A DNA stretch of 64,000 nucleotides from a virus. This document shows, piece by piece, positions 33,444 to 49,504 of the stretch; within the stretch, counting starts at the first letter, position 1; every line of letters begins with the position of its first letter. The stretch is taken from IMG/VR virus record IMGVR_UViG_3300024344_000004, positions 237-64,236 of that record. The stretch is one strand, 5' to 3'. The translations under genes and the position numbers were made by a program. The notes beneath the pieces were generated by a model, which worked only from the letters and a program-made list of their open reading frames with translations, was not told the origin of the DNA and did not search any database.

Positions 33444-33474
33444 TTTTCCACTCGTGTGAAAAAACCTTTATATA
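33444..33474 (+). promoter_or_regulatory. Palindrome TTTTCCAC-N4-GTGAAAA + BRE-TATA, copy 1
   Basis: ttttccactcgtgtgaaaaaacctttatata; ATG at 33496. Confidence 0.85.
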
Positions 33475-33495
33475 GGGTAGTGTTCTTGGTATATT

Positions 33496-33618
33496 ATGAG
33501 CAGAGGAGAACCATTTGGCAGTTGCGAGGACTGCGGGCTTGATGAGGTCGAACTATTCGGCGGACTATGTGAAGATTGCGAGTGTGAGATGTTTGCAACA
33601 TTCTGGACAGGAGACTGA
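33496..33618 (+). CDS. 40-aa Zn-finger microprotein
   Basis: MSRGEPFGSCEDCGLDEVELFGGLCEDCECEMFATFWTGD; leaderless. Confidence 0.7.
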   Translation: MSRGEPFGSCEDCGLDEVELFGGLCEDCECEMFATFWTGD

Positions 33619-33654
33619 GAGAAACCCTTATATAGGGTCACTCTATGGTATAGT

Positions 33655-33771
33655 ATGGCAAAACACCCGTGGGCGCATTTATCTTTAAAACAGATTTATG
33701 CCAATACAGAAAAACTAAAAAGAATACGCAAAGAAATGGAAAAGGAATTAGAAGGTGAATTAACTATTTAG
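33655..33771 (+). CDS. 38-aa hypothetical protein with own promoter
   Basis: aaacccttatatagg about 20 nt upstream; MAKHPWAHLSLKQIY... Confidence 0.65.
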   Translation: MAKHPWAHLSLKQIYANTEKLKRIRKEMEKELEGELTI

Positions 33772-33780
33772 ATTCCATGA

Positions 33781-33999
33781 GTCCCCAACACTGTAAGATG
33801 TGGCCGTAGGAGTAGGTGCACCATTTGGAAGTGGCAAGTGTATGAGTGAGTTTAATAAACTTTCCAGCATGGGGACAAGAGGAGACGCCTGACAAGTGAT
33901 GGCGAAGGGCCAGTGGCATAAGTCCGCCCGAGCGTTAAACGTAGCGACGCATCTCCAGCCCAGTGAGCCGGCCTACTACGGTGGGACAGCTGGGCGCCC
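33781..33999 (+). ncRNA. Candidate structured ncRNA A
   Basis: Stems GTCCCCA/TGGGGAC, GGAGACGC/GCATCTCC, GCCCAG/CTGGGC; crossing pairing 33804-33817 with 33971-33981. Confidence 0.6.
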
Positions 34000-34030
34000 T
34001 TTTCCACTCATGTGAAAAAACCTTTATATA
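34000..34030 (+). promoter_or_regulatory. Palindrome + BRE-TATA, copy 2
   Basis: ttttccactcatgtgaaaaaacctttatata; ATG at 34051. Confidence 0.85.
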
Positions 34031-34050
34031 GACACACCCGTTGGTAATAT

Positions 34051-34458
34051 ATGACTAGAAAACATTTTGTAGCAATAGCTCAGTTATTAGCCAAGCATGA
34101 CGCAGACCTTAACATGGTCCGAGACTTTGCCGGTATGTGTGCCGAACACAACCCACGCTTCGACAGAGAAACCTTTATAAAGGCCTGCTCAATGGAGTAA
34201 TATGAGCAAAATACAAGACATGAGAAACACCCACCGTTTCCGCAGAGTAGCACGCAGAACCATAACCAAAAACAAGATTGACTTAGGAGTCCATGAGCAA
34301 CTTATGGCTATCCGTTTGGGTCTTGCTGAGGATGTGAGAAATTGAAAAGCATCTTAGATATTTTAGATGACATGGTCATCTCTGGTATAAGCGAAGCAGG
34401 GGACTACATTGTTCTCTGCGGGTGTGAAGACGCACCTTGCTGTGGGTGCAACCTGTGA
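34051..34458 (+). CDS. Three coupled micro-ORFs (34051-34200 MTRKHFVAIA...NPRFDRETF; 34202-34345; 34342-34458 ending CGCEDAPCCGC)
   Basis: Translated by hand; short or overlapping junctions. Confidence 0.6.
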
Positions 34459-34576
34459 GCTACGACAAACCACTCAAACGCAGTTGGAAAAAAGAAACAA
34501 ATAAGATTATCAAAAAGGCCAGCCAATAGCTCGTTTGTTTTTCGGACACCTCCGGGGGGTAGGGCCTCCCCCCACC

Positions 34577-34607
34577 TTTTCCACTTGCGTGAAAAAACCT
34601 TTATATA
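34577..34607 (+). promoter_or_regulatory. Palindrome + BRE-TATA, copy 3 (preceded by a G6/C6 hairpin)
   Basis: ttttccacttgcgtgaaaaaacctttatata; ATG at 34628. Confidence 0.85.
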
Positions 34608-34627
34608 GACATACTCATTAGTATATT

Positions 34628-34864
34628 ATGAGCAAAAACTTATGTGGTAAGACACGCAAGACTGATGACCCTTATGAGGTCTGGACTGGCCCACGTGGCT
34701 TTGAATGGAGAGTATTAAAAAAATACCAGAACGCTGAGAACGAAGCAAAGAATCCTCACGCCAGATGGTTCTGTGCTGTTAAGTCAGACTTTACCTATGG
34801 TTCTTTTGAACTTGGTGATGTGTATGTCAGTGAGATTAAGAGCATGGGGGAAAAGCTTATATAG
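34628..34864 (+). CDS. Small conserved-looking phage protein (PYEVW...WRVLKKYQ...RWFCAVKS...ELGDVY)
   Basis: 78 aa, leaderless. Confidence 0.7.
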   Translation: MSKNLCGKTRKTDDPYEVWTGPRGFEWRVLKKYQNAENEAKNPHARWFCAVKSDFTYGSFELGDVYVSEIKSMGEKLI

Positions 34865-34886
34865 GGATACCCTATTGGTTATTATC

Positions 34887-35294
34887 GAGTGGGGAGCCCA
34901 AATTACCCCCACTCACTTATGGTTATCGGCCATAACACGTGACCTGAACTTAAAGACAAGAATAGACCATACGCCAACATACGACAAGCAATAACAAACT
35001 CAAGCTGAACAAGTGCTGACCAATCCCTTTCCGGTCGATGCGCATCTTAGTTGATTAACGACGTGTAGCTAAAATTTTGTATCACCTTTTGCCTCACTGA
35101 TTCCCTGTTATAAACTTAAGCGTATACAGCTATGAAGGAATTCTCTTTATCTTTTAGTGTCTCCGTCTCCTGACCGTTCGCGGTTTGACTCGGAGCAGGT
35201 CACACCCTAATGGACAAAACCTAGTTTGTCCTGTGGCAACCGCTCCTCAAGGTAGGCTTTAAATTCTAATTAGAGCCTTGGGTGAAGTTGCCAC
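34887..35294 (+). ncRNA. Candidate structured ncRNA B with its own promoter
   Basis: TATA 34857-34863; starts with GAGTGGGG/CCCCACTC stem; ends with GTGGCAAC/GTTGCCAC stem + T5; no credible ORF. Confidence 0.7.
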
Positions 35295-35295
35295 T

Positions 35296-35326
35296 TTTTC
35301 CACTCTTGTGAAAAAAGCTTTATATA
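35296..35326 (+). promoter_or_regulatory. Palindrome + BRE-TATA, copy 4
   Basis: ttttccactcttgtgaaaaaagctttatata; ATG at 35348. Confidence 0.85.
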
Positions 35327-35347
35327 GGGGTAGCCCCTTGGTAATAC

Positions 35348-35965: not shown

Positions 35966-36260
35966 TGAGCAAGTCAGAAAACTGCTCACCTTATATTTAT
36001 GGAAGTAGCTCTTCCGTAATCGGGTATGGCCGAACAAGTCCGCCACGGACTAAGGCACAGGACTGCGCAAACCGAGAAGCGACTGCTGGAGGAATGCAAA
36101 ACTGGTATGGGTTCTACTATGTAGTGGCATAAACCCATTGGAGGTATACATTAAATCCTCCTACCCATCCTTACATTGACGCCCCTTGACTTCCGTTATC
36201 GAATGCAAAAACATCGAGGAAGGAATGCTTTACCACCGGTGGTATATAAGTCAGGGGCTC
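35966..36260 (+). ncRNA. Candidate structured ncRNA C
   Basis: Serial hairpins TGAGC/GCTCA, GGAAG/CTTCC, AGTCC/GGACT, ATGGGTT/AACCCAT, GGAGG/CCTCC and terminal GCCCCTTGACTT/AAGTCAGGGGC before a T-run. Confidence 0.6.
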
Positions 36261-36832: not shown

Positions 36833-37508
36833 ATGACTATGACCGACATCGACACATTAGCAATACAACTAAAAAGCATGACTGCCAAACAGTTACAACA
36901 ACTGTTAAGTGCAACCCCGAACCGAGACGGTTCCGCAATCAAAGCCCGTAAGATACGTGCAACTGAGACATACTTCAGGAATGTAAAGAACAATGGATTA
37001 TATCCACATAACTTTGAGTCCTTCCCTCAGTTCAGAGAGGTCTTACCTTGAGTGACGTAATCGTTAAGTTCAATAACTACATGACTCAGCACACAGACAA
37101 AGTCCCTTTGTTAAGTGTTCAGTCAACTGATGATAAACGTTTCACAGTGCTGAGGGAATTATTAAATTCCGTCTTCGATGATGTAGAAGACAATGCTTGG
37201 TCAGTATCAGTGAACTTAGGAAAGTTCGTAGATGCCCTCAGCACAATGGAACAAAAAGATATAGATACTATATCACGAACAGTGAAGAAGTATCAAGTCA
37301 AAGGCACTTCGAGTGGTATCTCAGGTGAGAGAACCTATGGATATGACCGAAGCCGTGTTGACCGTAAGATGATTAGAAGAAGGAGAGCCAACTGATGAAC
37401 TGCGTAGATTGTGGTGAATACAGTTGGACTGATAATGGTGGACATGAAATAAATAAATCATGTTGTGAACACTGTTTAGTAAATGATTATATAACAGGTG
37501 AACTATGA
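36833..37508 (+). CDS. Three small early ORFs (36833-37051, 37048-37395, 37395-37508 Zn-finger)
   Basis: Promoter aaacgcttatatagg near 36800; overlapping junctions; last ORF MNCVDCGE...CCEHC. Confidence 0.6.
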
Positions 37509-38683
37509 GTAGAAGAGAAGGAAGACCATCACCAACTGAGTCAGCTACTGAGTTCCCTCTACACTATGAACGTGTAGGCGGAGACGGTAGATATTGGCAC
37601 GTAAGTGAAGACAAGCGTGGAGTAAGAAGATGGAAGAAGGGATTATATCATGGTTCAGATGAGGATAAACTTCTCAGTTCAACAACCGAAACGCTTATAA
37701 AGGATGATATATCTGGAGATACAATGGAAGACAAAACCGACCACAGAGGACTCGACAGTCTATTCGACCGAGACAGTCCCATGCCAGCAGAGGAACCTAC
37801 CCCCGAAGAAGTGGTAGAAGTAGAGAAAGACACAGTGATGTCTAAACTAAGAGGGTCAGTCAATGTGCCCGAAGAGTTTAAATTCGCTGATGACATGACA
37901 TTCTATACTATGTTGAGAAACATATTTAGAGGTAAGAACATTCTTATCACAGGTCCCTCAGGATGTGGTAAGTCAAGTCTCGGTAAGATATTAGCTGATA
38001 TCACTGCAAAAGACTTTTATAGTTTTAACTTCGGTGACACTATGAATCCCTCAGCTAAGTTATTGGGTGACACTAAGTATGATAAAGAAGCCGGAACATG
38101 GTTCAAACCATCTCGGTTCGTCAATGCAATACAAGGTGATTCATTCATTATGTTAGATGAGGTAACACGTGACCGAACAGGTGACTTAGCTAACATTCTC
38201 ATGCCGGTATTAGATGGTCAAAAGTATTTAGCTCTCGATGAGAGTGAAGATAGTGATACTGTCTCAGTTAGTAAAGGTGCGTTCTTTTACGCTACTGCTA
38301 ACATAGGTAGAGAGTATCTCGGTGCATCTCATGATTTAGACCGAGCATGGAAAGATAGATTCACAGGTGGTATATATGAATTAGAATACTTACCACCACA
38401 GAAAGAGAAAGAACTGATACAGAACAGAAACCCTCAGCTTACAGACTACGATGCTGATAAGATTGTAGACTTTGCTAAGAGAGTGCGTGACTTACATTCT
38501 TCAGACGAACTCAATACTGCTGTTTCAACACGTATGTGTTTAGCATCAGCTGAGTTAGTTGTTGATGGGATGCCTTTAGTCGATGCACTGAAACACACCT
38601 GTTTACCGTTCTACCCTGTTCAGGGTGGTGACGATACTGAGAGAGTTCGTATTATACAAGTTATTCAATCAATGGGTGAATAG
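37505..38683 (+). CDS. MoxR/CbbQ-NirQ-NorQ-type AAA+ ATPase with an N-terminal extra domain
   Basis: GPSGCGKS, IMLDEVTR, FYATANIGREY, LDRAWKDRF, STRMCL; internal TATA 37695-37701 and ATG 37724. Confidence 0.88.
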   Translation: MSRREGRPSPTESATEFPLHYERVGGDGRYWHVSEDKRGVRRWKKGLYHGSDEDKLLSSTTETLIKDDISGDTMEDKTDHRGLDSLFDRDSPMPAEEPTPEEVVEVEKDTVMSKLRGSVNVPEEFKFADDMTFYTMLRNIFRGKNILITGPSGCGKSSLGKILADITAKDFYSFNFGDTMNPSAKLLGDTKYDKEAGTWFKPSRFVNAIQGDSFIMLDEVTRDRTGDLANILMPVLDGQKYLALDESEDSDTVSVSKGAFFYATANIGREYLGASHDLDRAWKDRFTGGIYELEYLPPQKEKELIQNRNPQLTDYDADKIVDFAKRVRDLHSSDELNTAVSTRMCLASAELVVDGMPLVDALKHTCLPFYPVQGGDDTERVRIIQVIQSMGE

Positions 38684-39070
38684 ATGGTTAAGAAGAAAGT
38701 ATTACGTAGAAAGCACACATATTGGCATCAGTTGGCTAAGTTCCTTATACTGAATGGTTACAAACCAACAATGATAGGAAAGATAATCAAGGATGTATTT
38801 CCCGAGACTGAGGTCAATGGTAGACACGTAGGTGCATACAAACGTAGATTGATACAAGATGAGGATATTCTCATCCCAAACAAACCAACTATGAATATCA
38901 ATGAAGTAAGAGAAATAGCTGAAGGCTTAGTTACTAACGAAGATATGTTTATATATAAATGTGTTATCGGTTCAGCTAAGAGAAGTCTTAAGTGCTTCGA
39001 GTATAAGTTCCGTAGTGAGGATAAAGATTTAGTAAGTGAGGTAGATAAATGGATTATGGCGATTCAATAG
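38684..39070 (+). CDS. Hypothetical, possible HTH protein
   Basis: 128 aa between AAA and vWA genes. Confidence 0.5.
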   Translation: MVKKKVLRRKHTYWHQLAKFLILNGYKPTMIGKIIKDVFPETEVNGRHVGAYKRRLIQDEDILIPNKPTMNINEVREIAEGLVTNEDMFIYKCVIGSAKRSLKCFEYKFRSEDKDLVSEVDKWIMAIQ

Positions 39071-41163
39071 ATGAATGGACTGAGGACAGTGAAAATGATT
39101 TCTGTTATGCGTGTGACGATTGGACTGATGCCGACGGTCATGGCAACTGTAAAGATTGTGGCAACAGTTACACTACAGTAGACCCATTCGTCAGTCCGAC
39201 TATAGCAAAGACATACAGTTCACCCGCACCTACTGTCTCAGCACATGGTGACCTTTGGAATAGGGGTTCGGGTTTCACATGGGGTGGTAGTTCATATTGG
39301 TCCGGTGGTGGAGCTACATCATGGGGTGGTTGGTCTCAGTCTACAAACGACAGTGCTCGTATGCTTAAACATAAAAGACATTTAGATTCTCTTTGTAAAG
39401 TAGTAGACCCAACTGTAAAGCATTCATTACATTTCGCAACTGAGTCGAAGAACTATTCGAACATGTCTAATGGAACTATATATGTAGATGGGACTCTCAT
39501 TGAACACGATGATGACAAACTCGACATATTAGCTGGTCTCTCAATACATGAGAAGTTACACTTAGTTCATACTCAACCATTAACTAAATGGGAACGTGAG
39601 TATAGTCACCAAAACAATCTTAGTTCAGCACAGGAAAGATTACTACATAACATATGTAATATCATAGAAGATGAATATATAGAATCTCAGTTAGCTAAGA
39701 CTCATGCCGGATACACTATGTATATTGAGAAGGTTAAACAACACTTCTTTGGTAAGCATGGTCACAAGATAGATGAGTTCAACGGTAATCCTATCGCTGA
39801 CATAATGAATACATTGTTAGCTATGGTAAGATATCCACAATCTATCTCAGCTGACCGTAGAAAGAAACACGCTAAGCATATTCAGTTCTTTGCCCGTGCG
39901 TTAACAGATGCATTAACTGATAGACATTCAACCTTTATGGCTATGGATAGTATTTATTGTTATATGAATCAACTCGCTAAAGAAGAAGCAGAGAAGCATG
40001 AAGGCACCGACGAAGAAGAAATACTACGACGTGCTGATGACAGGCTCAAAGACCTTTTAGGTGAGTGGGGTGAATCAGTTGGTGAAGAAATGTCAGCTGA
40101 AGACATGGAACGTATCAAAGATAGACTTATAGAAAAAGAACGTGACGAAGCTGAACGTGGTGATAGATATGACCGTAAAGAGAAATTGTCTCGAGCTTTG
40201 GATAAGTTCGCAAAAGAACTCGCTGATTATGGTTTAGATAGAGACACTATTTCAGATGCACTCGGTAGAGATATAGATGAGTTAGCTGACAGTGACTATA
40301 CTGAAGAGAAGTGGGATGTGTCCCGTGCTCTCGGTTTGAAACAAGGTGGTAAAGTTACATGGCGTAATCAAAGAGCCTCTTCAGACTATGATAAGAGTAA
40401 ATACACTGAGGCTGAAAGAAATATGAAATCAGCAATTGGTCAACTAAAGAGAAAGATACAACTATATGGTGACACACGTATTAACACCATTCGTAACCAA
40501 CGAAGAGGTAAGTTAGATAAACGTATGCTACATAAGATACCTCTCGGTCGACCCGACTTATTCAAGAATGTAATTATTGACGAAGACAAGCCACTCGATG
40601 TATGTCTCTTAGTCGATGAGTCAGGTAGTATGGGTTCATGGAAGATGGCTAAAGCACGTGAGACTGCGATTGCTTTACGTGAATCACTCAAAGATAATCA
40701 AGCTCTCAACTTATGGGTGTTTGGTCACACAGCTGACGGTTATGAATGGGATGGTAAAGGTGACACTAATATGTCAGTATATTGGTCACCTACATATAAA
40801 TCAGATATAAAGGCTATGGGTGCTATGACAGCACGTAGTGAAAACAGAGATGGTATGGCTATTCTCGCATCAGCTGAAAGAGTCAAAGCTGAGTCACCAT
40901 CAATGGGTAGCAATAAACTTATGATTGTTATCTCAGACGGTGAACCATCAGCAGACAAATACAGATTCCCAATCAGTGTGCCACATACTAAGAAGTGTGT
41001 CAGACACATTGAGGGACAGGGATGGAATGTAATTCAAATAGGCATCTCAGGTGCACGTGAATATATTATGAAAGATATGTTTACTAATTACATCCTGTGT
41101 GATGATACAGCTGACTTACCAACTAAGGTAAGTAAAGTAATTAGAAGGGTGATAAAAGTATGA
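39049..41163 (+). CDS. vWA-domain protein with HExxH motif and N-terminal CxxC pair (CobT-like partner of the AAA)
   Basis: HEKLH; MIDAS LLVDESGSM; LMIVISDGEP; CYAC...CKDC. Confidence 0.85.
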   Translation: MDYGDSIDEWTEDSENDFCYACDDWTDADGHGNCKDCGNSYTTVDPFVSPTIAKTYSSPAPTVSAHGDLWNRGSGFTWGGSSYWSGGGATSWGGWSQSTNDSARMLKHKRHLDSLCKVVDPTVKHSLHFATESKNYSNMSNGTIYVDGTLIEHDDDKLDILAGLSIHEKLHLVHTQPLTKWEREYSHQNNLSSAQERLLHNICNIIEDEYIESQLAKTHAGYTMYIEKVKQHFFGKHGHKIDEFNGNPIADIMNTLLAMVRYPQSISADRRKKHAKHIQFFARALTDALTDRHSTFMAMDSIYCYMNQLAKEEAEKHEGTDEEEILRRADDRLKDLLGEWGESVGEEMSAEDMERIKDRLIEKERDEAERGDRYDRKEKLSRALDKFAKELADYGLDRDTISDALGRDIDELADSDYTEEKWDVSRALGLKQGGKVTWRNQRASSDYDKSKYTEAERNMKSAIGQLKRKIQLYGDTRINTIRNQRRGKLDKRMLHKIPLGRPDLFKNVIIDEDKPLDVCLLVDESGSMGSWKMAKARETAIALRESLKDNQALNLWVFGHTADGYEWDGKGDTNMSVYWSPTYKSDIKAMGAMTARSENRDGMAILASAERVKAESPSMGSNKLMIVISDGEPSADKYRFPISVPHTKKCVRHIEGQGWNVIQIGISGAREYIMKDMFTNYILCDDTADLPTKVSKVIRRVIKV

Positions 41164-41263
41164 ATGATGATAATAATATGAAAGAAGCTCAGTGGTTTAT
41201 ATTAATCGCTGGGTTCATGATGTTATGGATGGTCATGATTATGATGCTGGGTTAAGGGTGACA

Positions 41264-41675
41264 GGTAATAAGTTGAGAATTTATTTTACTTAGTCGGTTT
41301 TGCTCATAGCTCAGCTTATTACCCACCAAACGCACGAAGACTTTGAACTTTGAAGCTCAGTTTGTTTATCAGGCCACGCTGACCGCTCCCTCATTAGAGG
41401 CAACGTCAGTAGTAGGACAGTATAAACAGAGAGGTAGCTATCGGTATGGTGATAGCTGAATACAAAGGAACCAAATATATCGTTTAGCCTAATCATTATG
41501 GCGACGAGTATATGTCAAGCATACCTCAGTATACCCCTGTAAATCTATCGTGACAGTTATGTCAGATGAGTTTGGAATGCTACATAGTAGCGTGGTATAC
41601 GAAAAAAGAAAGAGCACGATAGTTTCAGTTGCGAAGCTACACGACTCTTACTGAGAAGTCGTTCTCTCTTCGTGC
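41264..41675 (+). ncRNA. Candidate structured ncRNA D
   Basis: 14-bp stem 41264-41277/41310-41323; long-range helix GCACGAAGA (41332)/TCTTCGTGC (41667); crossed helices GTATACC/GGTATAC and CTATCGTG/CACGATAG. Confidence 0.7.
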
Positions 41676-41736
41676 ACCACAACCTTTATATAGGATAATC
41701 AAATATATTGAAATATAATCAAAAGGAATTGAAAAT

Positions 41737-42174
41737 ATGCAAACATTTTTACCAACAAAAAACTTTAGAACATCAGCCAAACTATTAGACTATCGTCGTC
41801 TCGGTAAGCAAAGAGTGGAAGGGCTTCAGCTCATCAACTCACTTAGTCCGGACTACGATAAAAAAGGTTGGCTCAACCACCCCGCACGTTTGATGTGGGT
41901 TGGTTACGAAAACGCTTTGAAACATTACACTAACGTAATGATAGAAGAGTGGGTTGCACGTGGATATAACAACACGATGCAATTATATAAAATAGAAGGG
42001 CCGATAGTATACCCTCAATGGTTAGGCTATCCGGAACTGCATAAGTCACATCGAATGAACCTACTTCGTAAGGATTACGACTTTTATAAACAGCACTTCG
42101 ATGACGATGCACAAACGGACCTCACAATCATAAACGAGTATGAATACTATTGGCCACCGGAGAAAGAAAGATGA
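41737..42174 (+). CDS. Pyrimidine-dimer DNA glycosylase (DenV/MSMEG_6728-like)
   Basis: MQTFLP...LDYRRLGKQRVEGLQL...HPARLMWVGYE...SHRMNLLRKD. Confidence 0.88.
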   Translation: MQTFLPTKNFRTSAKLLDYRRLGKQRVEGLQLINSLSPDYDKKGWLNHPARLMWVGYENALKHYTNVMIEEWVARGYNNTMQLYKIEGPIVYPQWLGYPELHKSHRMNLLRKDYDFYKQHFDDDAQTDLTIINEYEYYWPPEKER

Positions 42175-42268
42175 TAAGAGAATTATTAGTGTGGATAGAT
42201 AAGAAGTTTGGTTTGAACCGAACTAAGAAACTTATGATAAGACCACGTAAATACGGAGCAAAGAAAAA

Positions 42269-42726
42269 ATGAACTTAGAACAAGAGAACATGGAACTCAA
42301 AGAGATGTTAGCTGGTGCACAGTTAACTGAGGAAAACTTAAAGGATTACCTTTTCGAGATTTGTGATTATATTCACTACGAGATGCCACTCAAGGAACAG
42401 GACCGATGGCTTGAGAGGATGATTGAACTCGGACTATACACACCGGAGTTTGACTAATGGTCACAACTACAGGCGACGCAGTTCACTTTATGAAGATTGT
42501 TTTAGATTGGTGTTCACCGAAGGTAGCCCGAATGATGATGGATGATTTAGATTTCTACATCGCTGAGACTACTGATAACGAATCAGTTCGTGATTCTATT
42601 AAGATGGTTAGAGAGTTAATCTATGCGAGAGCAGAAGAGAACTTAGAGTTAGAAGCTGAAGAAGCAGAATGGCAAACAGCTCAAGAAATTATAGACGAAC
42701 AGAGAAAGATAGGCAAACCAGAATGA
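42269..42726 (+). CDS. Two small acidic hypothetical proteins (42269-42457, 42457-42726)
   Basis: Coupled ORFs from track. Confidence 0.55.
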
Positions 42727-43702: not shown

Positions 43703-44302
43703 ATGAAAGACATAATGAAAGAATACAGCACAACATTCTACGAATGTTTAGATGCGTGGCCAGATGATATCAAAGAAGATATATACAAACTATATGCATA
43801 CCTCAGAGTGTGTGATGAGATGGTCGAAGGTGAGAAGACACTACATGACTTCAAGAATTGGAGAGATGTTATAGAACAGTTCTATGAAGTTAGTGATAAG
43901 TATCAGTTCGATGGTCAATGGTTAGCTGACTTCCACGTCAGTATGTATCAAGATATGGTAAAGAAAGAACACACAATTGTATCTATGTTAGATTACTGTA
44001 AAGGTTCAGCTGAATCAGTTGGTATGATGATGTCTAAGATATTAGGATGTAACCCACGTTGTGAGATACACGCAAGGGCTCTCGGCAGAGCTTATCAGAT
44101 TATTAACTTCATAAGAGATTATGATGAGGATGTAGCCAATGGTTATCATTACATCACTGATAACTTCAGTGCATACTTAGAGATATTTTATCAAGACATA
44201 GATAATGGTATGGATGGTTTAAATTATATTCCAGAAGAGTTACAAGAGCCTATCATAATGGCTACTAAAAAATATATGGAAGTAGCGGGTGAATTCAACT
44301 AA
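43703..44302 (+). CDS. Compact phytoene/squalene synthase-family protein (CrtB-like)
   Basis: YSTTFY, LYAYLRVCDEMVE, SMYQDM, YCKGSAESVGMMM, ALGRAYQIINFIRDYDED. Confidence 0.8.
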   Translation: MKDIMKEYSTTFYECLDAWPDDIKEDIYKLYAYLRVCDEMVEGEKTLHDFKNWRDVIEQFYEVSDKYQFDGQWLADFHVSMYQDMVKKEHTIVSMLDYCKGSAESVGMMMSKILGCNPRCEIHARALGRAYQIINFIRDYDEDVANGYHYITDNFSAYLEIFYQDIDNGMDGLNYIPEELQEPIIMATKKYMEVAGEFN

Positions 44303-44644: not shown

Positions 44645-44761
44645 ATGGATATAATACCGTTAGAAATACCAATACGAGACCAACTGAGAGTGTATGCTAT
44701 ACAAGTCTCAGTTTACATTACCATAACCTTTATATAGGGAGGTGGTTTTGGATAAATTACA

Positions 44762-47763: not shown

Positions 47764-49236
47764 ATGAAAAAATATGAAATATACGATTTGCTAAGATATT
47801 TTCACAATGCAAAGAAAAAAGACGGAACACTTTTCCCTATACTAGGAGAGGATTCGTTAGCTCTAACTACAAGTCTATCTTACTTGTTAGAAGATACTAA
47901 CTTCTGTATTAAAGCATACAGTGGAACAGGTAAGACTGTATTGATGGAAGCTGTGGCAAACCTACTTCCAGAGGAGTATGTCTACTCAGTAGAACATATG
48001 TCAGAGACAGCAATATGGTATGATGAGGATAAAATCAACAAAGCTAGATTTGTTTTTATTCCAGAAGCACAAAAGATACCAGAGGGTGTCATGGAAATCA
48101 TTAAAACATGGGCAGACGGGCGAACAGCCCAACGTAAAAAGACAGATGTTACTATCAAGATGGCAGTAACACAGTGGTTAAAACCTAAATATGTTTTGAT
48201 GGCAGTAGCAGTAGAGAATGATAAAGGTTCAGCTATGTTTGATGCTGAGTTAGAACGTAGATGTATGATTATGCATACAAACCCTACAGTCAAACAGACA
48301 GAAAGAGTTATCAAACATAAACTTTTACATTCAGCTTCACCAAAAGCCTCTATGTCTTCAATGTCAGATAAAGAAATAAAAGATTTAAAGAAACACATAC
48401 TAACTACATTGAGAGAAAGAGACGAAGATGATGCGACTGTATTAAAGAATCCATGCGCCCCATTTCTATTTGACGCAATACCATCAGCATTCCCTGTATC
48501 ACGGTCGAAGGTTCAGTATCTATTGAAGTTGATTAATGCTATAGCAAGGTTTTATCCAGATGAGATAGTTAAAGTCAAACAAGATGGTATACAATATGGA
48601 CTAGTATCACCTAAACATAACTGGCTCGGACTGAGAATATATCTTAACTCATTTGTAGAAGAATGCTTACATATGCCAAGTCATGGAACAGACATACTTA
48701 AACTATTTCCCGAAACTAGATTAGATAGGTTTGGTTTTGCAGATAGTGAGACAGTTAAGATGTCAGAGAATGAATTGAAAAAGGCTGCTAAATCAGCTGG
48801 TCTACCATTTACCAAATTAAGACCAGTTATAGCAGGTTTAATGATGACAGGGTTCTTAGAGTGTGATGAAGAAGGAAGTAAAAAACTTTACTATAAGAGC
48901 CCACTCATTACAGAACCAGTATCAAAAATAAATTGGAGTGATTTAATTGAAGAAACGAAAGAGTTTATACGAAAAGAGTGGCCTAAAGTATCTGATGAAT
49001 ACATTGGGCGCAGTTGTAGCAGTATCAGGATTGTTGACCCGTTTAGTGGGGACAACATTGAACTGGGTGCGAGAGCAGAGACAGCGGTAGAAGTTGACAC
49101 TGGTGATTATCCGTCAGTGTTCAAGTCTTCTAGTGACGCTAAGATTAAAGACTACGAGTCTTTTCTACTAAATGCAGAGGGAGATTACAATGACGAAGAA
49201 GACAAAGCAGTCAGAGAATACTTTCAGAAGAAGTAG
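47764..49236 (+). CDS. MCM-like AAA+ P-loop NTPase/replicative helicase
   Basis: AYSGTGKT Walker A, FIPEAQK variant Walker B, ELERR arginine finger. Confidence 0.7.
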   Translation: MKKYEIYDLLRYFHNAKKKDGTLFPILGEDSLALTTSLSYLLEDTNFCIKAYSGTGKTVLMEAVANLLPEEYVYSVEHMSETAIWYDEDKINKARFVFIPEAQKIPEGVMEIIKTWADGRTAQRKKTDVTIKMAVTQWLKPKYVLMAVAVENDKGSAMFDAELERRCMIMHTNPTVKQTERVIKHKLLHSASPKASMSSMSDKEIKDLKKHILTTLRERDEDDATVLKNPCAPFLFDAIPSAFPVSRSKVQYLLKLINAIARFYPDEIVKVKQDGIQYGLVSPKHNWLGLRIYLNSFVEECLHMPSHGTDILKLFPETRLDRFGFADSETVKMSENELKKAAKSAGLPFTKLRPVIAGLMMTGFLECDEEGSKKLYYKSPLITEPVSKINWSDLIEETKEFIRKEWPKVSDEYIGRSCSSIRIVDPFSGDNIELGARAETAVEVDTGDYPSVFKSSSDAKIKDYESFLLNAEGDYNDEEDKAVREYFQKK

Positions 49237-49504
49237 ACTTCCTAAGCGAGATGAGATGTTTGCAGTAGTCATAGAGATGTCAGGGGGTTCTAGAATGAGA
49301 GCCCTCTGTGCAGACAGTAAAACCCGCATGATTAGAATCGGTGGTAAACTGAAGAAAAGAATGTGGTGTAGAGAGAATGATTTAATTATAGTTAAGCCTT
49401 GGGTTATACAGAGTGACCAAAAGGCAGACTTAGTTTATAGGTATCTCCCTACTGAGAGAAAGAATATAAGTAAAAAAATACCAGAGGAGTTAAACATATG
49501 GTGA
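49190..49504 (+). CDS. eif1a: Archaeal translation initiation factor aIF-1A (eIF1A)
   Basis: RLPKR.EMFAVV.EMSGGSRMRALC.D.KTRMIRIGGKLKKRMW.RE.DLIIVKPW..Q.DQKADLVYRY. Confidence 0.93.
   Translation: MTKKTKQSENTFRRSRLPKRDEMFAVVIEMSGGSRMRALCADSKTRMIRIGGKLKKRMWCRENDLIIVKPWVIQSDQKADLVYRYLPTERKNISKKIPEELNIW

Follow-up and report, generated by a model that had tools for sequence, protein, structure and literature searches.

Large ornate structured RNAs, such as ROOL and GOLLD of phages and prophages and the manA RNA motif, are encoded by viruses, do not code for protein, and combine many covarying helices and conserved loops with a variable periphery. The manA RNA family is known from Photobacterium and cyanophages; in archaeal viruses, structured non-coding RNAs have hardly been explored, and those viruses that infect Marine Group II archaea cannot be grown in culture. 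A recent report describes RNA-only cages built by manA RNAs (bioRxiv 10.64898/2026.07.01.735769). Here we analyse 64 kb of the 69,348-base-pair (bp) IMG/VR virus record IMGVR_UViG_3300024344_000004 (hereafter the window; G+C content, 38%), in which a gap of about 480 nucleotides (nt) lies between an open reading frame (ORF) of 31 amino acids (aa) on the left and a DenV-like gene on the right. Covariation among homologous loci shows that positions 41257-41675 of the window encode a conserved plus-strand structured RNA of a previously uncatalogued family, found once per genome in an uncultured marine virus clade. The element belongs to a known general kind, the virus-encoded ornate structured RNA, and what is new is the family, most likely one of structured RNAs embedded in a 3′ untranslated region (UTR).

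A hairpin and a three-helix stalk form the conserved core

The original prediction for this gap described a 344-nt RNA domain closed by a long-range helix and preceded by a 14-bp hairpin. The two closing segments, 41332-41340 (GCACGAAGA) and 41667-41675 (TCTTCGTGC), are exact reverse complements and lie where they were claimed. Because 35% of Markov-shuffled versions of the gap contain at least one perfect 9-bp inverted repeat, this helix alone is not beyond chance and the case rests on homologues. We collected 18 homologous viral loci through the DenV protein, and 24 viral and 80 metagenome loci through an alignment of the von Willebrand factor A (vWA) protein encoded upstream, the metagenome loci stemming from Tara and from numerous JGI and ENA marine samples. 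In a first alignment the gap proved conserved over its initial ~110 nt and its final ~85 nt and hugely variable in between. Both arms of the predicted closing helix fall in these conserved flanks, and their pairing is retained among homologues through compensatory changes. The unit that is conserved, however, is not the 344-nt domain but a hairpin, P1, together with a stalk of three helices (H1, H2 and H3) separated by two internal loops (L1 and L2). Its parts in the window are as follows, with subtype I and the diverged subtype II referring to the two groups of members compared below.

41257-41327 (+): hairpin P1, present in the minimum-free-energy fold and in homologue covariation
41257-60 / 41324-27: basal P1 helix GGUG/CACC
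41261-63: 3-nt P1 bulge ACA, A-N-A across relatives
41264-41277 / 41310-41323: 14-bp P1 stem, confirming the predicted hairpin
P1 apical loop: contains the conserved GUCGGU...GCUCAU, with GUCGGU...CAU conserved and unpaired across relatives
41332-41340 (+): H1 5′ arm GCACGAAGA, 9 bp with 41667-41675, the predicted closing helix
41341-41344 (+): L1 5′ side CUUU, conserved and unpaired, CUU or CCU in most relatives
41345-41348 (+): H2 5′ arm GAAC, 4 bp with 41661-41664
41349-41355 (+): L2 5′ side UUUGAAG, with UUUGAA near-invariant in subtype I
41356-41361 (+): H3 5′ arm CUCAGU, 6 bp with 41650-41655
41650-41655 (+): H3 3′ arm ACUGAG, partner of 41356-41361
41656-41660 (+): L2 3′ side AAGUC, consensus (A)AGYC
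41661-41664 (+): H2 3′ arm GUUC, partner of 41345-41348
41665-41666 (+): L1 3′ side UC, unchanged in all correctly fitted subtype-I sequences and present in subtype II
41667-41675 (+): H1 3′ arm UCUUCGUGC, partner of 41332-41340

Both parts of this core covary cleanly. P1 was found in 81 loci, and its 42 distinct arm pairs contain 98.6% standard pairs, with both-sided changes in 9 of 12 pairs and a score that 0 of 10,000 permutations reached. Across 29 distinct stem sets the stalk also shows 98.6% standard pairs, with both-sided changes in 16 of 17 pairs; cognate arms score 16.8 of 17 versus 12.9 for non-cognate arms, and no permutation of the 3′ arms (0 of 10,000) reached the observed total. 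The arms change together in H1 (GUGUGAAGU/ACUUCACAC, GCACAAAGG/CCUUUGUGC and GCAACAAAGA/UCUUUGUUGC), and helix variants are likewise found for H2 (GAGU/GCUC, GGAU/AUCC, AGAU/GUCU and UGAU/GUCA), which measures exactly 4 bp in almost all members, and for H3 (CUUAG/CUAAG and CUCG/CGAG). In total, both-sided changes affect 25 of the 29 P1 and stalk pairs, which excludes chance. G-U pairs outnumber A-C combinations 79 to 1 in P1, where one U-G is nearly invariant, and 40 to 4 in the stalk; this excess of 119 to 5 indicates that selection acts on the plus-strand RNA.

An independent count gave the same picture. A covariance model built from eight short members yielded an alignment of 17 full-length members (A5) in which 98.7% of cells are paired and 15 of 32 pairs carry both-sided changes, compared with 9.1 +/- 1.3 in shuffles (0 of 500 shuffles reached the observed value), and sliding the partners by 1-3 columns leaves only 35-46% paired. 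Compensatory pairs above phylogenetic and shuffle controls are the generic mark of a conserved structured RNA, and they are found here. The fold itself agrees: for the plus strand of 41256-41736 the minimum free energy is -134.7 kcal/mol (z = -4.6 versus shuffles), with P1 and H1 in place, and an unconstrained fold of 41257-41683 recovers P1, H1, H2 and H3, giving the same structure as a fold on which the comparative helices were imposed. The covariance model matched a single copy in the window and, among five related complete or near-complete genomes searched, a single copy apiece in four.

The same plan extends to diverged subtype II, found behind vWA genes of 46-50% identity (L044, L046, L117, L118, L122, L125, L130 and L131). 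Here the helix sequences are entirely different, with H1 as GUGGUAGAGA/UCUCUACCAC, H3 as CCCNAAA/UUUNGGG, an extra helix CUGAG/CUCAG and an irregular H2.

A variable crown is built from hairpin modules

On the tip of H3 stands a crown whose length across relatives ranges from 5 nt to about 650 nt, via 35, 60 and 85 nt. In the 113-nt minimal elements (L068, L033 and L065) H3 is capped by a 5-7-nt loop and there is no crown. Because the crowns of relatives shrink to 5 nt, the interior seen in the window is a lineage-specific expansion, and P1 and the stalk are the core. The crown is a mosaic of hairpin modules that are patchily common to lineages, and in the window it comprises the following parts.

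41362-41649 (+): whole crown, 288 nt
41362-41429: module M1, UUGUUUAU/AUAAACAG around CAGGCCACGC...GUAGGACAG
41438-41459: module M2, hairpin AGCUAUC/GAUAGCU, with a tail ...AAAGGAACC
41486-41501: module M3, hairpin GCC/GGC with loop UAAUCAUUAU
41529-41600: module M5, domain closed by GUAUACC/GGUAUAC
41610-14 / 41645-49: AAGAG/CUCUU, which extends the stalk
41620-41639: hairpin UAGUUUC/GAAGCUA

Several modules carry their own signature of structural selection. M2 covaries across lineages (GACUAAC/GUUAGUC, GUCUAUC/GAUAGAC and GGUAGC/GCUACC) around a loop of consensus RRUWUGGU, followed by the tail AAGAGAACC. The 10-nt loop of M3, UAAUCAUWAU, is invariant, and the 3-5-bp stem around it covaries and varies freely. 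Applied to the five closest relatives, RNAalifold retained the UAGUUUC/GAAGCUA hairpin with compensatory changes, as well as GUAUAC/GUAUAC and the AAGAG/CUCUU stalk extension. We also observed that the M2 loop UAUGGUGAU (41445-41453) is complementary to the invariant M3 loop AUCAUUAUG (41492-41500) and that the two are paired in the energy-minimum fold; the complementarity could reflect a loop-loop contact within or between molecules.

Other helices proposed for the interior fared unevenly. TGTTTAT/ATAAACA is kept in five close relatives with one compensatory change, and the proposed AGCTATC/GATAGCT corresponds to the covarying M2. GCTGAC/GTCAGT and CCTC/GAGG are present in the fold, but their region is replaced in relatives, and ACGACT/AGTCGT is not supported, as it competes with the covarying H2 and H3 and has an uncompensated mismatch in the 94%-identical closest relative (alignments A1 and A6). 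The proposed pseudoknot is not supported: GTATACC/GGTATAC, which is partly a GTATAC palindrome, is kept, but the crossing helix CTATCGTG/CACGATAG shows no both-sided change, 3 of its 8 pairs are broken in L028, and in other lineages its 5′ arm occurs without a partner and forms a local hairpin. The broader suggestion, that such a closed multi-domain fold typifies large ribozymes or scaffold RNAs rather than terminators, was borne out in part, in that covariation, G-U asymmetry, the lack of a U-tail and the lack of a conserved ORF describe a genuine structured RNA and not a terminator; a ribozyme was not indicated by our tests, and a scaffold RNA is possible.

The element lies at the 3′ end of a MoxR and vWA operon

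The element occupies a fixed place between a stop codon and the next promoter. The surrounding features are as follows.

37505-38683: MoxR-AAA+ gene of the operon MoxR / 128-aa / vWA / 31-aa ORF
39049-41163 (+): vWA gene, NorD/CobT-like
41160-41255 (+): small hydrophobic 31-aa ORF, last cistron of the operon, conserved in relatives
41676-41693 (+): ACCACAAC then CTTTATATAG, promoter of the DenV unit resembling a B recognition element (BRE) and TATA box, and 3′ limit of the element
41737-42174: DenV-like pyrimidine-dimer glycosylase gene, the next unit, right of the gap

P1 starts 2 nt past the stop codon of the 31-aa ORF or, in some relatives, 6 nt past the vWA stop codon. H1 ends 8 nt before the BRE/TATA box in the window and 4-8 nt before it across relatives, and the distance between the element and this promoter motif (copy at 41683-41693) is fixed in relatives. 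As a start 2-6 nt past a stop codon leaves no room for a promoter of its own, the element looks less like an independent gene than like an RNA embedded where the operon transcript ends. Comparison of loci links it to the vWA gene and small ORF and not to the downstream gene: it always lies behind the MoxR-AAA+/vWA operon, many loci have DenV downstream of it and others a different gene, and one lineage has DenV upstream of the element. In L122 a Shine-Dalgarno-like AAAGGAG and an ATG follow directly 3′ of H1.

The upstream vWA protein resembles partners of MoxR ATPases. Pfam assigned VWA and CobT_C domains to 41 vWA homologues, a PDB profile search with the vWA protein matched NorD, and the top Foldseek matches of its AlphaFold model (predicted local distance difference test score, pLDDT, 78.6) were the NorD vWA and Rea1/MDN1 MIDAS domains. 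The NorD and Rea1 MIDAS vWA domains are partners of MoxR ATPases. We also noted an N-terminal four-cysteine, zinc-ribbon-like motif and an invariant HExxH (IHEKLH), the latter within a long helical domain that has no Pfam match; the protein could combine, as a fusion, a metalloprotease-like module with a NorD-type vWA domain.

Transcription is compatible with metatranscriptome data, which lend it weak support. Short contigs from three runs of two studies cover parts of 41348-41649, and in run X16 no contig fell on the element at >=90% identity; the runs contain small shares of sequence only, and their short contigs gave no starts, ends or expression level. No cleavage or circular junction appeared in these contigs, which could not show rare ones.

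The virus probably infects Marine Group II archaea

Genes in the window run leftward to ~32 kb and rightward beyond. With one mismatch allowed, the window contains 16 copies of the promoter motif (A)AAC-CTTTATATAG, versus 2.5 expected, on the strand that matches the coding strand of the gene, and in four cassettes an ATG lies ~20 nt downstream of the motif, the same spacing as in an archaeal BRE/TATA promoter that gives a leaderless mRNA. Four near-identical cassettes, TTTTCCACTCNTGTGAAAAAAC-CTTTATATAG, are located at 33444-35330 (+), with an ATG ~20 nt past the TATA-like box; some have a GC hairpin and a T run in front, and they head short ORFs or ORF-free stretches. A hairpin, ACUGAGA...UCUCAGU at 44683-44737 (+), also stands directly 5′ of another promoter, ACCAUAAC-CTTTATATAG, and hairpin-then-promoter may be a general junction design of this genome.

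A 110-aa ORF at 49172-49504 (+), overlapping the end of a 490-aa gene and the start of a MazG gene, contains an eIF-1A/IF-1 domain (E = 1.8e-15) and is aIF-1A-like. A translation initiation factor is unusual in a tailed virus. The genome further codes for PolB, a head-tail structural module, a GT4 glycosyltransferase and a CobT-type vWA protein, a gene content described for group-E viruses of Poseidoniales (PMC11706807). Related DNA came from marine samples throughout. A PolB search for named relatives returned distant matches only (21-24% identity); promoter form, the aIF-1A-like gene and gene content are therefore the basis of the host assignment. On these grounds, together with its marine origin, we treat the virus as probably one of Marine Group II (Poseidoniales) archaea.

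Two further observations concern the region around the element. A full-length manA RNA (RF01745, 62.8 bits, E = 1.3e-13) is located at 35997-36171 (+), ~5 kb upstream, and a 199-aa squalene/phytoene synthase-family protein (Pfam SQS_PSY, E = 3e-23) is encoded at 43703-44302 (+).

Comparison with catalogued RNA classes

A scan with the Rfam 15 covariance models, which include group I and II introns, RNase P, SRP, GOLLD, ROOL, OLE, HEARO, small ribozymes, Y RNA and manA, gave no match at gathering score in the region. Relaxing the threshold to E values of up to 10 on 41100-41800 returned two noise matches of 17-18 bits against thresholds of 35-45, and the 13 relatives with the largest crowns gave no match at E up to 1. 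ARAGORN detected neither tRNA nor tmRNA, whether in the window or among 45 relatives; a tRNA/tmRNA-like end was considered from the ACCA that follows H1 in many members and rejected, as ACCA is missing in the GUGC-AAAC group (~10 sequences). The element contains no conserved ORF, a 61-aa minus-strand ORF at 41311-41496 being frame-shifted in L028 and L054. No terminator-like site was found on the plus strand of 40900-42300. Runs of U in the conserved core reach U3-U4 at most, inside L2, and an intrinsic or archaeal oligo-U terminator was rejected in the absence of a run of >=5 U after a stem or of a stand-alone U tract.

More specific identities were rejected in turn. A Ro60/Y RNA particle does not fit, as TROVE was present in 0 of the 41 vWA homologues and the fold is NorD/MIDAS-like. 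Inspection of the consensus spoke against an L7Ae-binding kink-turn, since the unbulged strand beside H2 and H1 reads YC or UC and not GA and the P1 bulge ACA is followed by G-C pairs; by manual inspection only, sarcin-ricin-like and C/D-box loop readings also mismatch the consensus. A PeSL-type (promoter early stem-loop) mobile cassette was discarded because the element is single-copy and its insert has no conserved ORF. Cassettes of this type do occur at another place in the genome, 33.4-35.3 kb. Crown modules and flanks showed no repeats elsewhere in the genome, a phage database search with the DNA gave no match, and a pattern scan of viral contigs produced one match, L025, which was rejected as chance. 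To the extent checked, in Rfam 15 and the full-text literature, the family is undescribed, and the 29-151-nt candidates of a 2023 screen of IMG/VR for structured RNAs (PMC10690425) might include P1.

Interpretation of the element

We infer, with a probability of roughly 0.55, that the element gives rise to a stable 3′-UTR-derived RNA or RNA-protein particle whose ends are clamped by the stalk and whose invariant loops serve as a protein or processing platform. Transcription of the MoxR/vWA operon would yield the element as the 3′-terminal part of the mRNA; P1 and the stalk would keep the RNA ends in helices and so protect them from exonucleases; the invariant unpaired nucleotides of both would offer a protein a platform for docking or processing; the 3′ UTR would give rise to a stable RNA or RNA-protein particle; and the crown would add lineage-specific functions or contacts. 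Invariant loops, a three-part architecture and covarying modules, maintained over much divergence, favour a stable RNA over a mere end-protecting hairpin.

Several points weigh against this interpretation. It rests on predicted RNA ends and processing, a putative partner protein and a deduced archaeal host. The element brings neither promoter nor terminator with it, and its minimal form, two hairpins between a stop codon and the next promoter, fits a cis-acting element of the mRNA end equally well. The metatranscriptome contigs are few and short, may stem from DNA carry-over, and do not reveal the strand. The stem registers behind the 29-set stalk count were fitted by a search that favours pairing, and alignment A5 was fitted to its covariance model.

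A purely cis-acting role, compatible with a stable RNA rather than exclusive of it, is the strongest alternative and a real, if lesser, prospect. P1 and the stalk would then both label and shield the operon mRNA at its 3′ end, or would halt or insulate transcription just ahead of the next promoter, as an archaeal-virus counterpart of stabilizing intercistronic hairpins or PeSL cassettes, with the crown as tolerated or stabilizing baggage. The tight fit between stop codon and BRE/TATA box, the missing promoter, the two-hairpin minimal forms and the hairpins in front of other promoters of this genome all speak for such an element, and the AAAGGAG and ATG directly after it in L122 suggest a place inside a polycistronic mRNA. 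Yet invariant loops and bulges and a three-part architecture would be unusual for 3′-end hairpins while the neighbouring protein falls to 46% identity, and the crown modules, with invariant loops of their own, are themselves under structural selection. A purely cis-acting role is further disfavoured in that 41256-41683 holds neither the oligo-U tract of archaeal termination nor a terminator-like site, and only one junction per genome carries the element.

Excision of the RNA, possibly as a circle, appears improbable. In this scheme the host splicing endonuclease would cut at H2, as a relaxed bulge-helix-bulge site, and RtcB would do the joining; it draws on the near-constant 4 bp of H2, the 3-nt CUU loop on its 5′ strand, the probably archaeal host and the holding together of the ends by H1. 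We rejected a canonical bulge-helix-bulge because, beside this 4-bp helix and its CUU loop, L1 has two extra nucleotides (UC) opposite and L2 is an internal loop of 7 nt versus 5 nt, not a 3-nt bulge; H2 is moreover irregular in subtype II, and in Thermoplasmata-type archaea the endonucleases are homodimers that act mostly on canonical sites, which also counts against excision.

We disfavour as very improbable a DNA-level element (a replication origin, protein-binding site or recombination cassette) or chance inverted repeats, which could draw on the frequency of 9-bp repeats in shuffles, on conserved flanks around a variable insert that recall recombination cassettes, and on a 3′ arm that abuts a promoter, since the compensatory changes speak against chance, the G-U asymmetry is unexpected for double-stranded DNA sites or the minus strand, arms that lie 5 to about 650 nt apart are unfit for a dimeric DNA-binding site, and the flanks are not repeated elsewhere in the genome.

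Relation to known systems

Across ocean metagenomes, those of Tara and of many JGI samples, the element is common and its covariation is unusually clean. The natural series from the 113-nt core to forms of ~750 nt delimits the essential parts and makes the element tractable for probing, cryo-electron microscopy and protein pull-downs. If the stalk is indeed a processing or protein-docking platform, it would define a new route to stable RNAs from the 3′ ends of archaeal-virus mRNAs.

Known systems resemble the element in different respects. Like the PeSLs of T4-type phages and REP-like hairpins, it has a stem-loop at a gene junction, immediately 5′ of a promoter, and its conserved flanks enclose a variable insert; unlike PeSLs, which are repeated in the genome and flank ORFs, it is single-copy with a non-coding insert, and its two flanks covary as one RNA helix. 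Archaeal rRNA and tRNA processing stems similarly use a long-range helix to join the ends of a domain and contain a 4-bp helix beside small loops, whereas the loops of the element lack canonical bulge-helix-bulge geometry. Y RNAs of the Ro60 system (for example, Salmonella rsr-yrlBA) offer a parallel in position and build, as they too lie directly downstream of a vWA-domain gene on the same strand and hold their 5′ and 3′ ends in a long stem with conserved internal loops and a variable module on top; the protein next to our element, however, lacks TROVE, and neither a Y RNA model match nor a tRNA-like module was found.

With ROOL, GOLLD and manA the element shares the features set out at the beginning. 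It differs in having no sequence or structure match to their Rfam models, in its layout of one hairpin, a stalk and a crown with a minimal form of 113 nt, and in its probably archaeal host. The occurrence of this element and a manA RNA in one genome suggests that viruses of this group carry a set of ornate RNAs. A bolder and, on balance, doubtful proposal is that the element represents the first family of large modular structured non-coding RNAs to be described for archaeal viruses, a stable particle released from the 3′ UTR of the operon in which the stalk would dock a host or viral protein, or conserved loops such as the mutually complementary ones of M2 and M3 would make RNA-RNA contacts, and that it would be an archaeal-virus counterpart of the self-assembling phage RNAs ROOL, GOLLD and manA.

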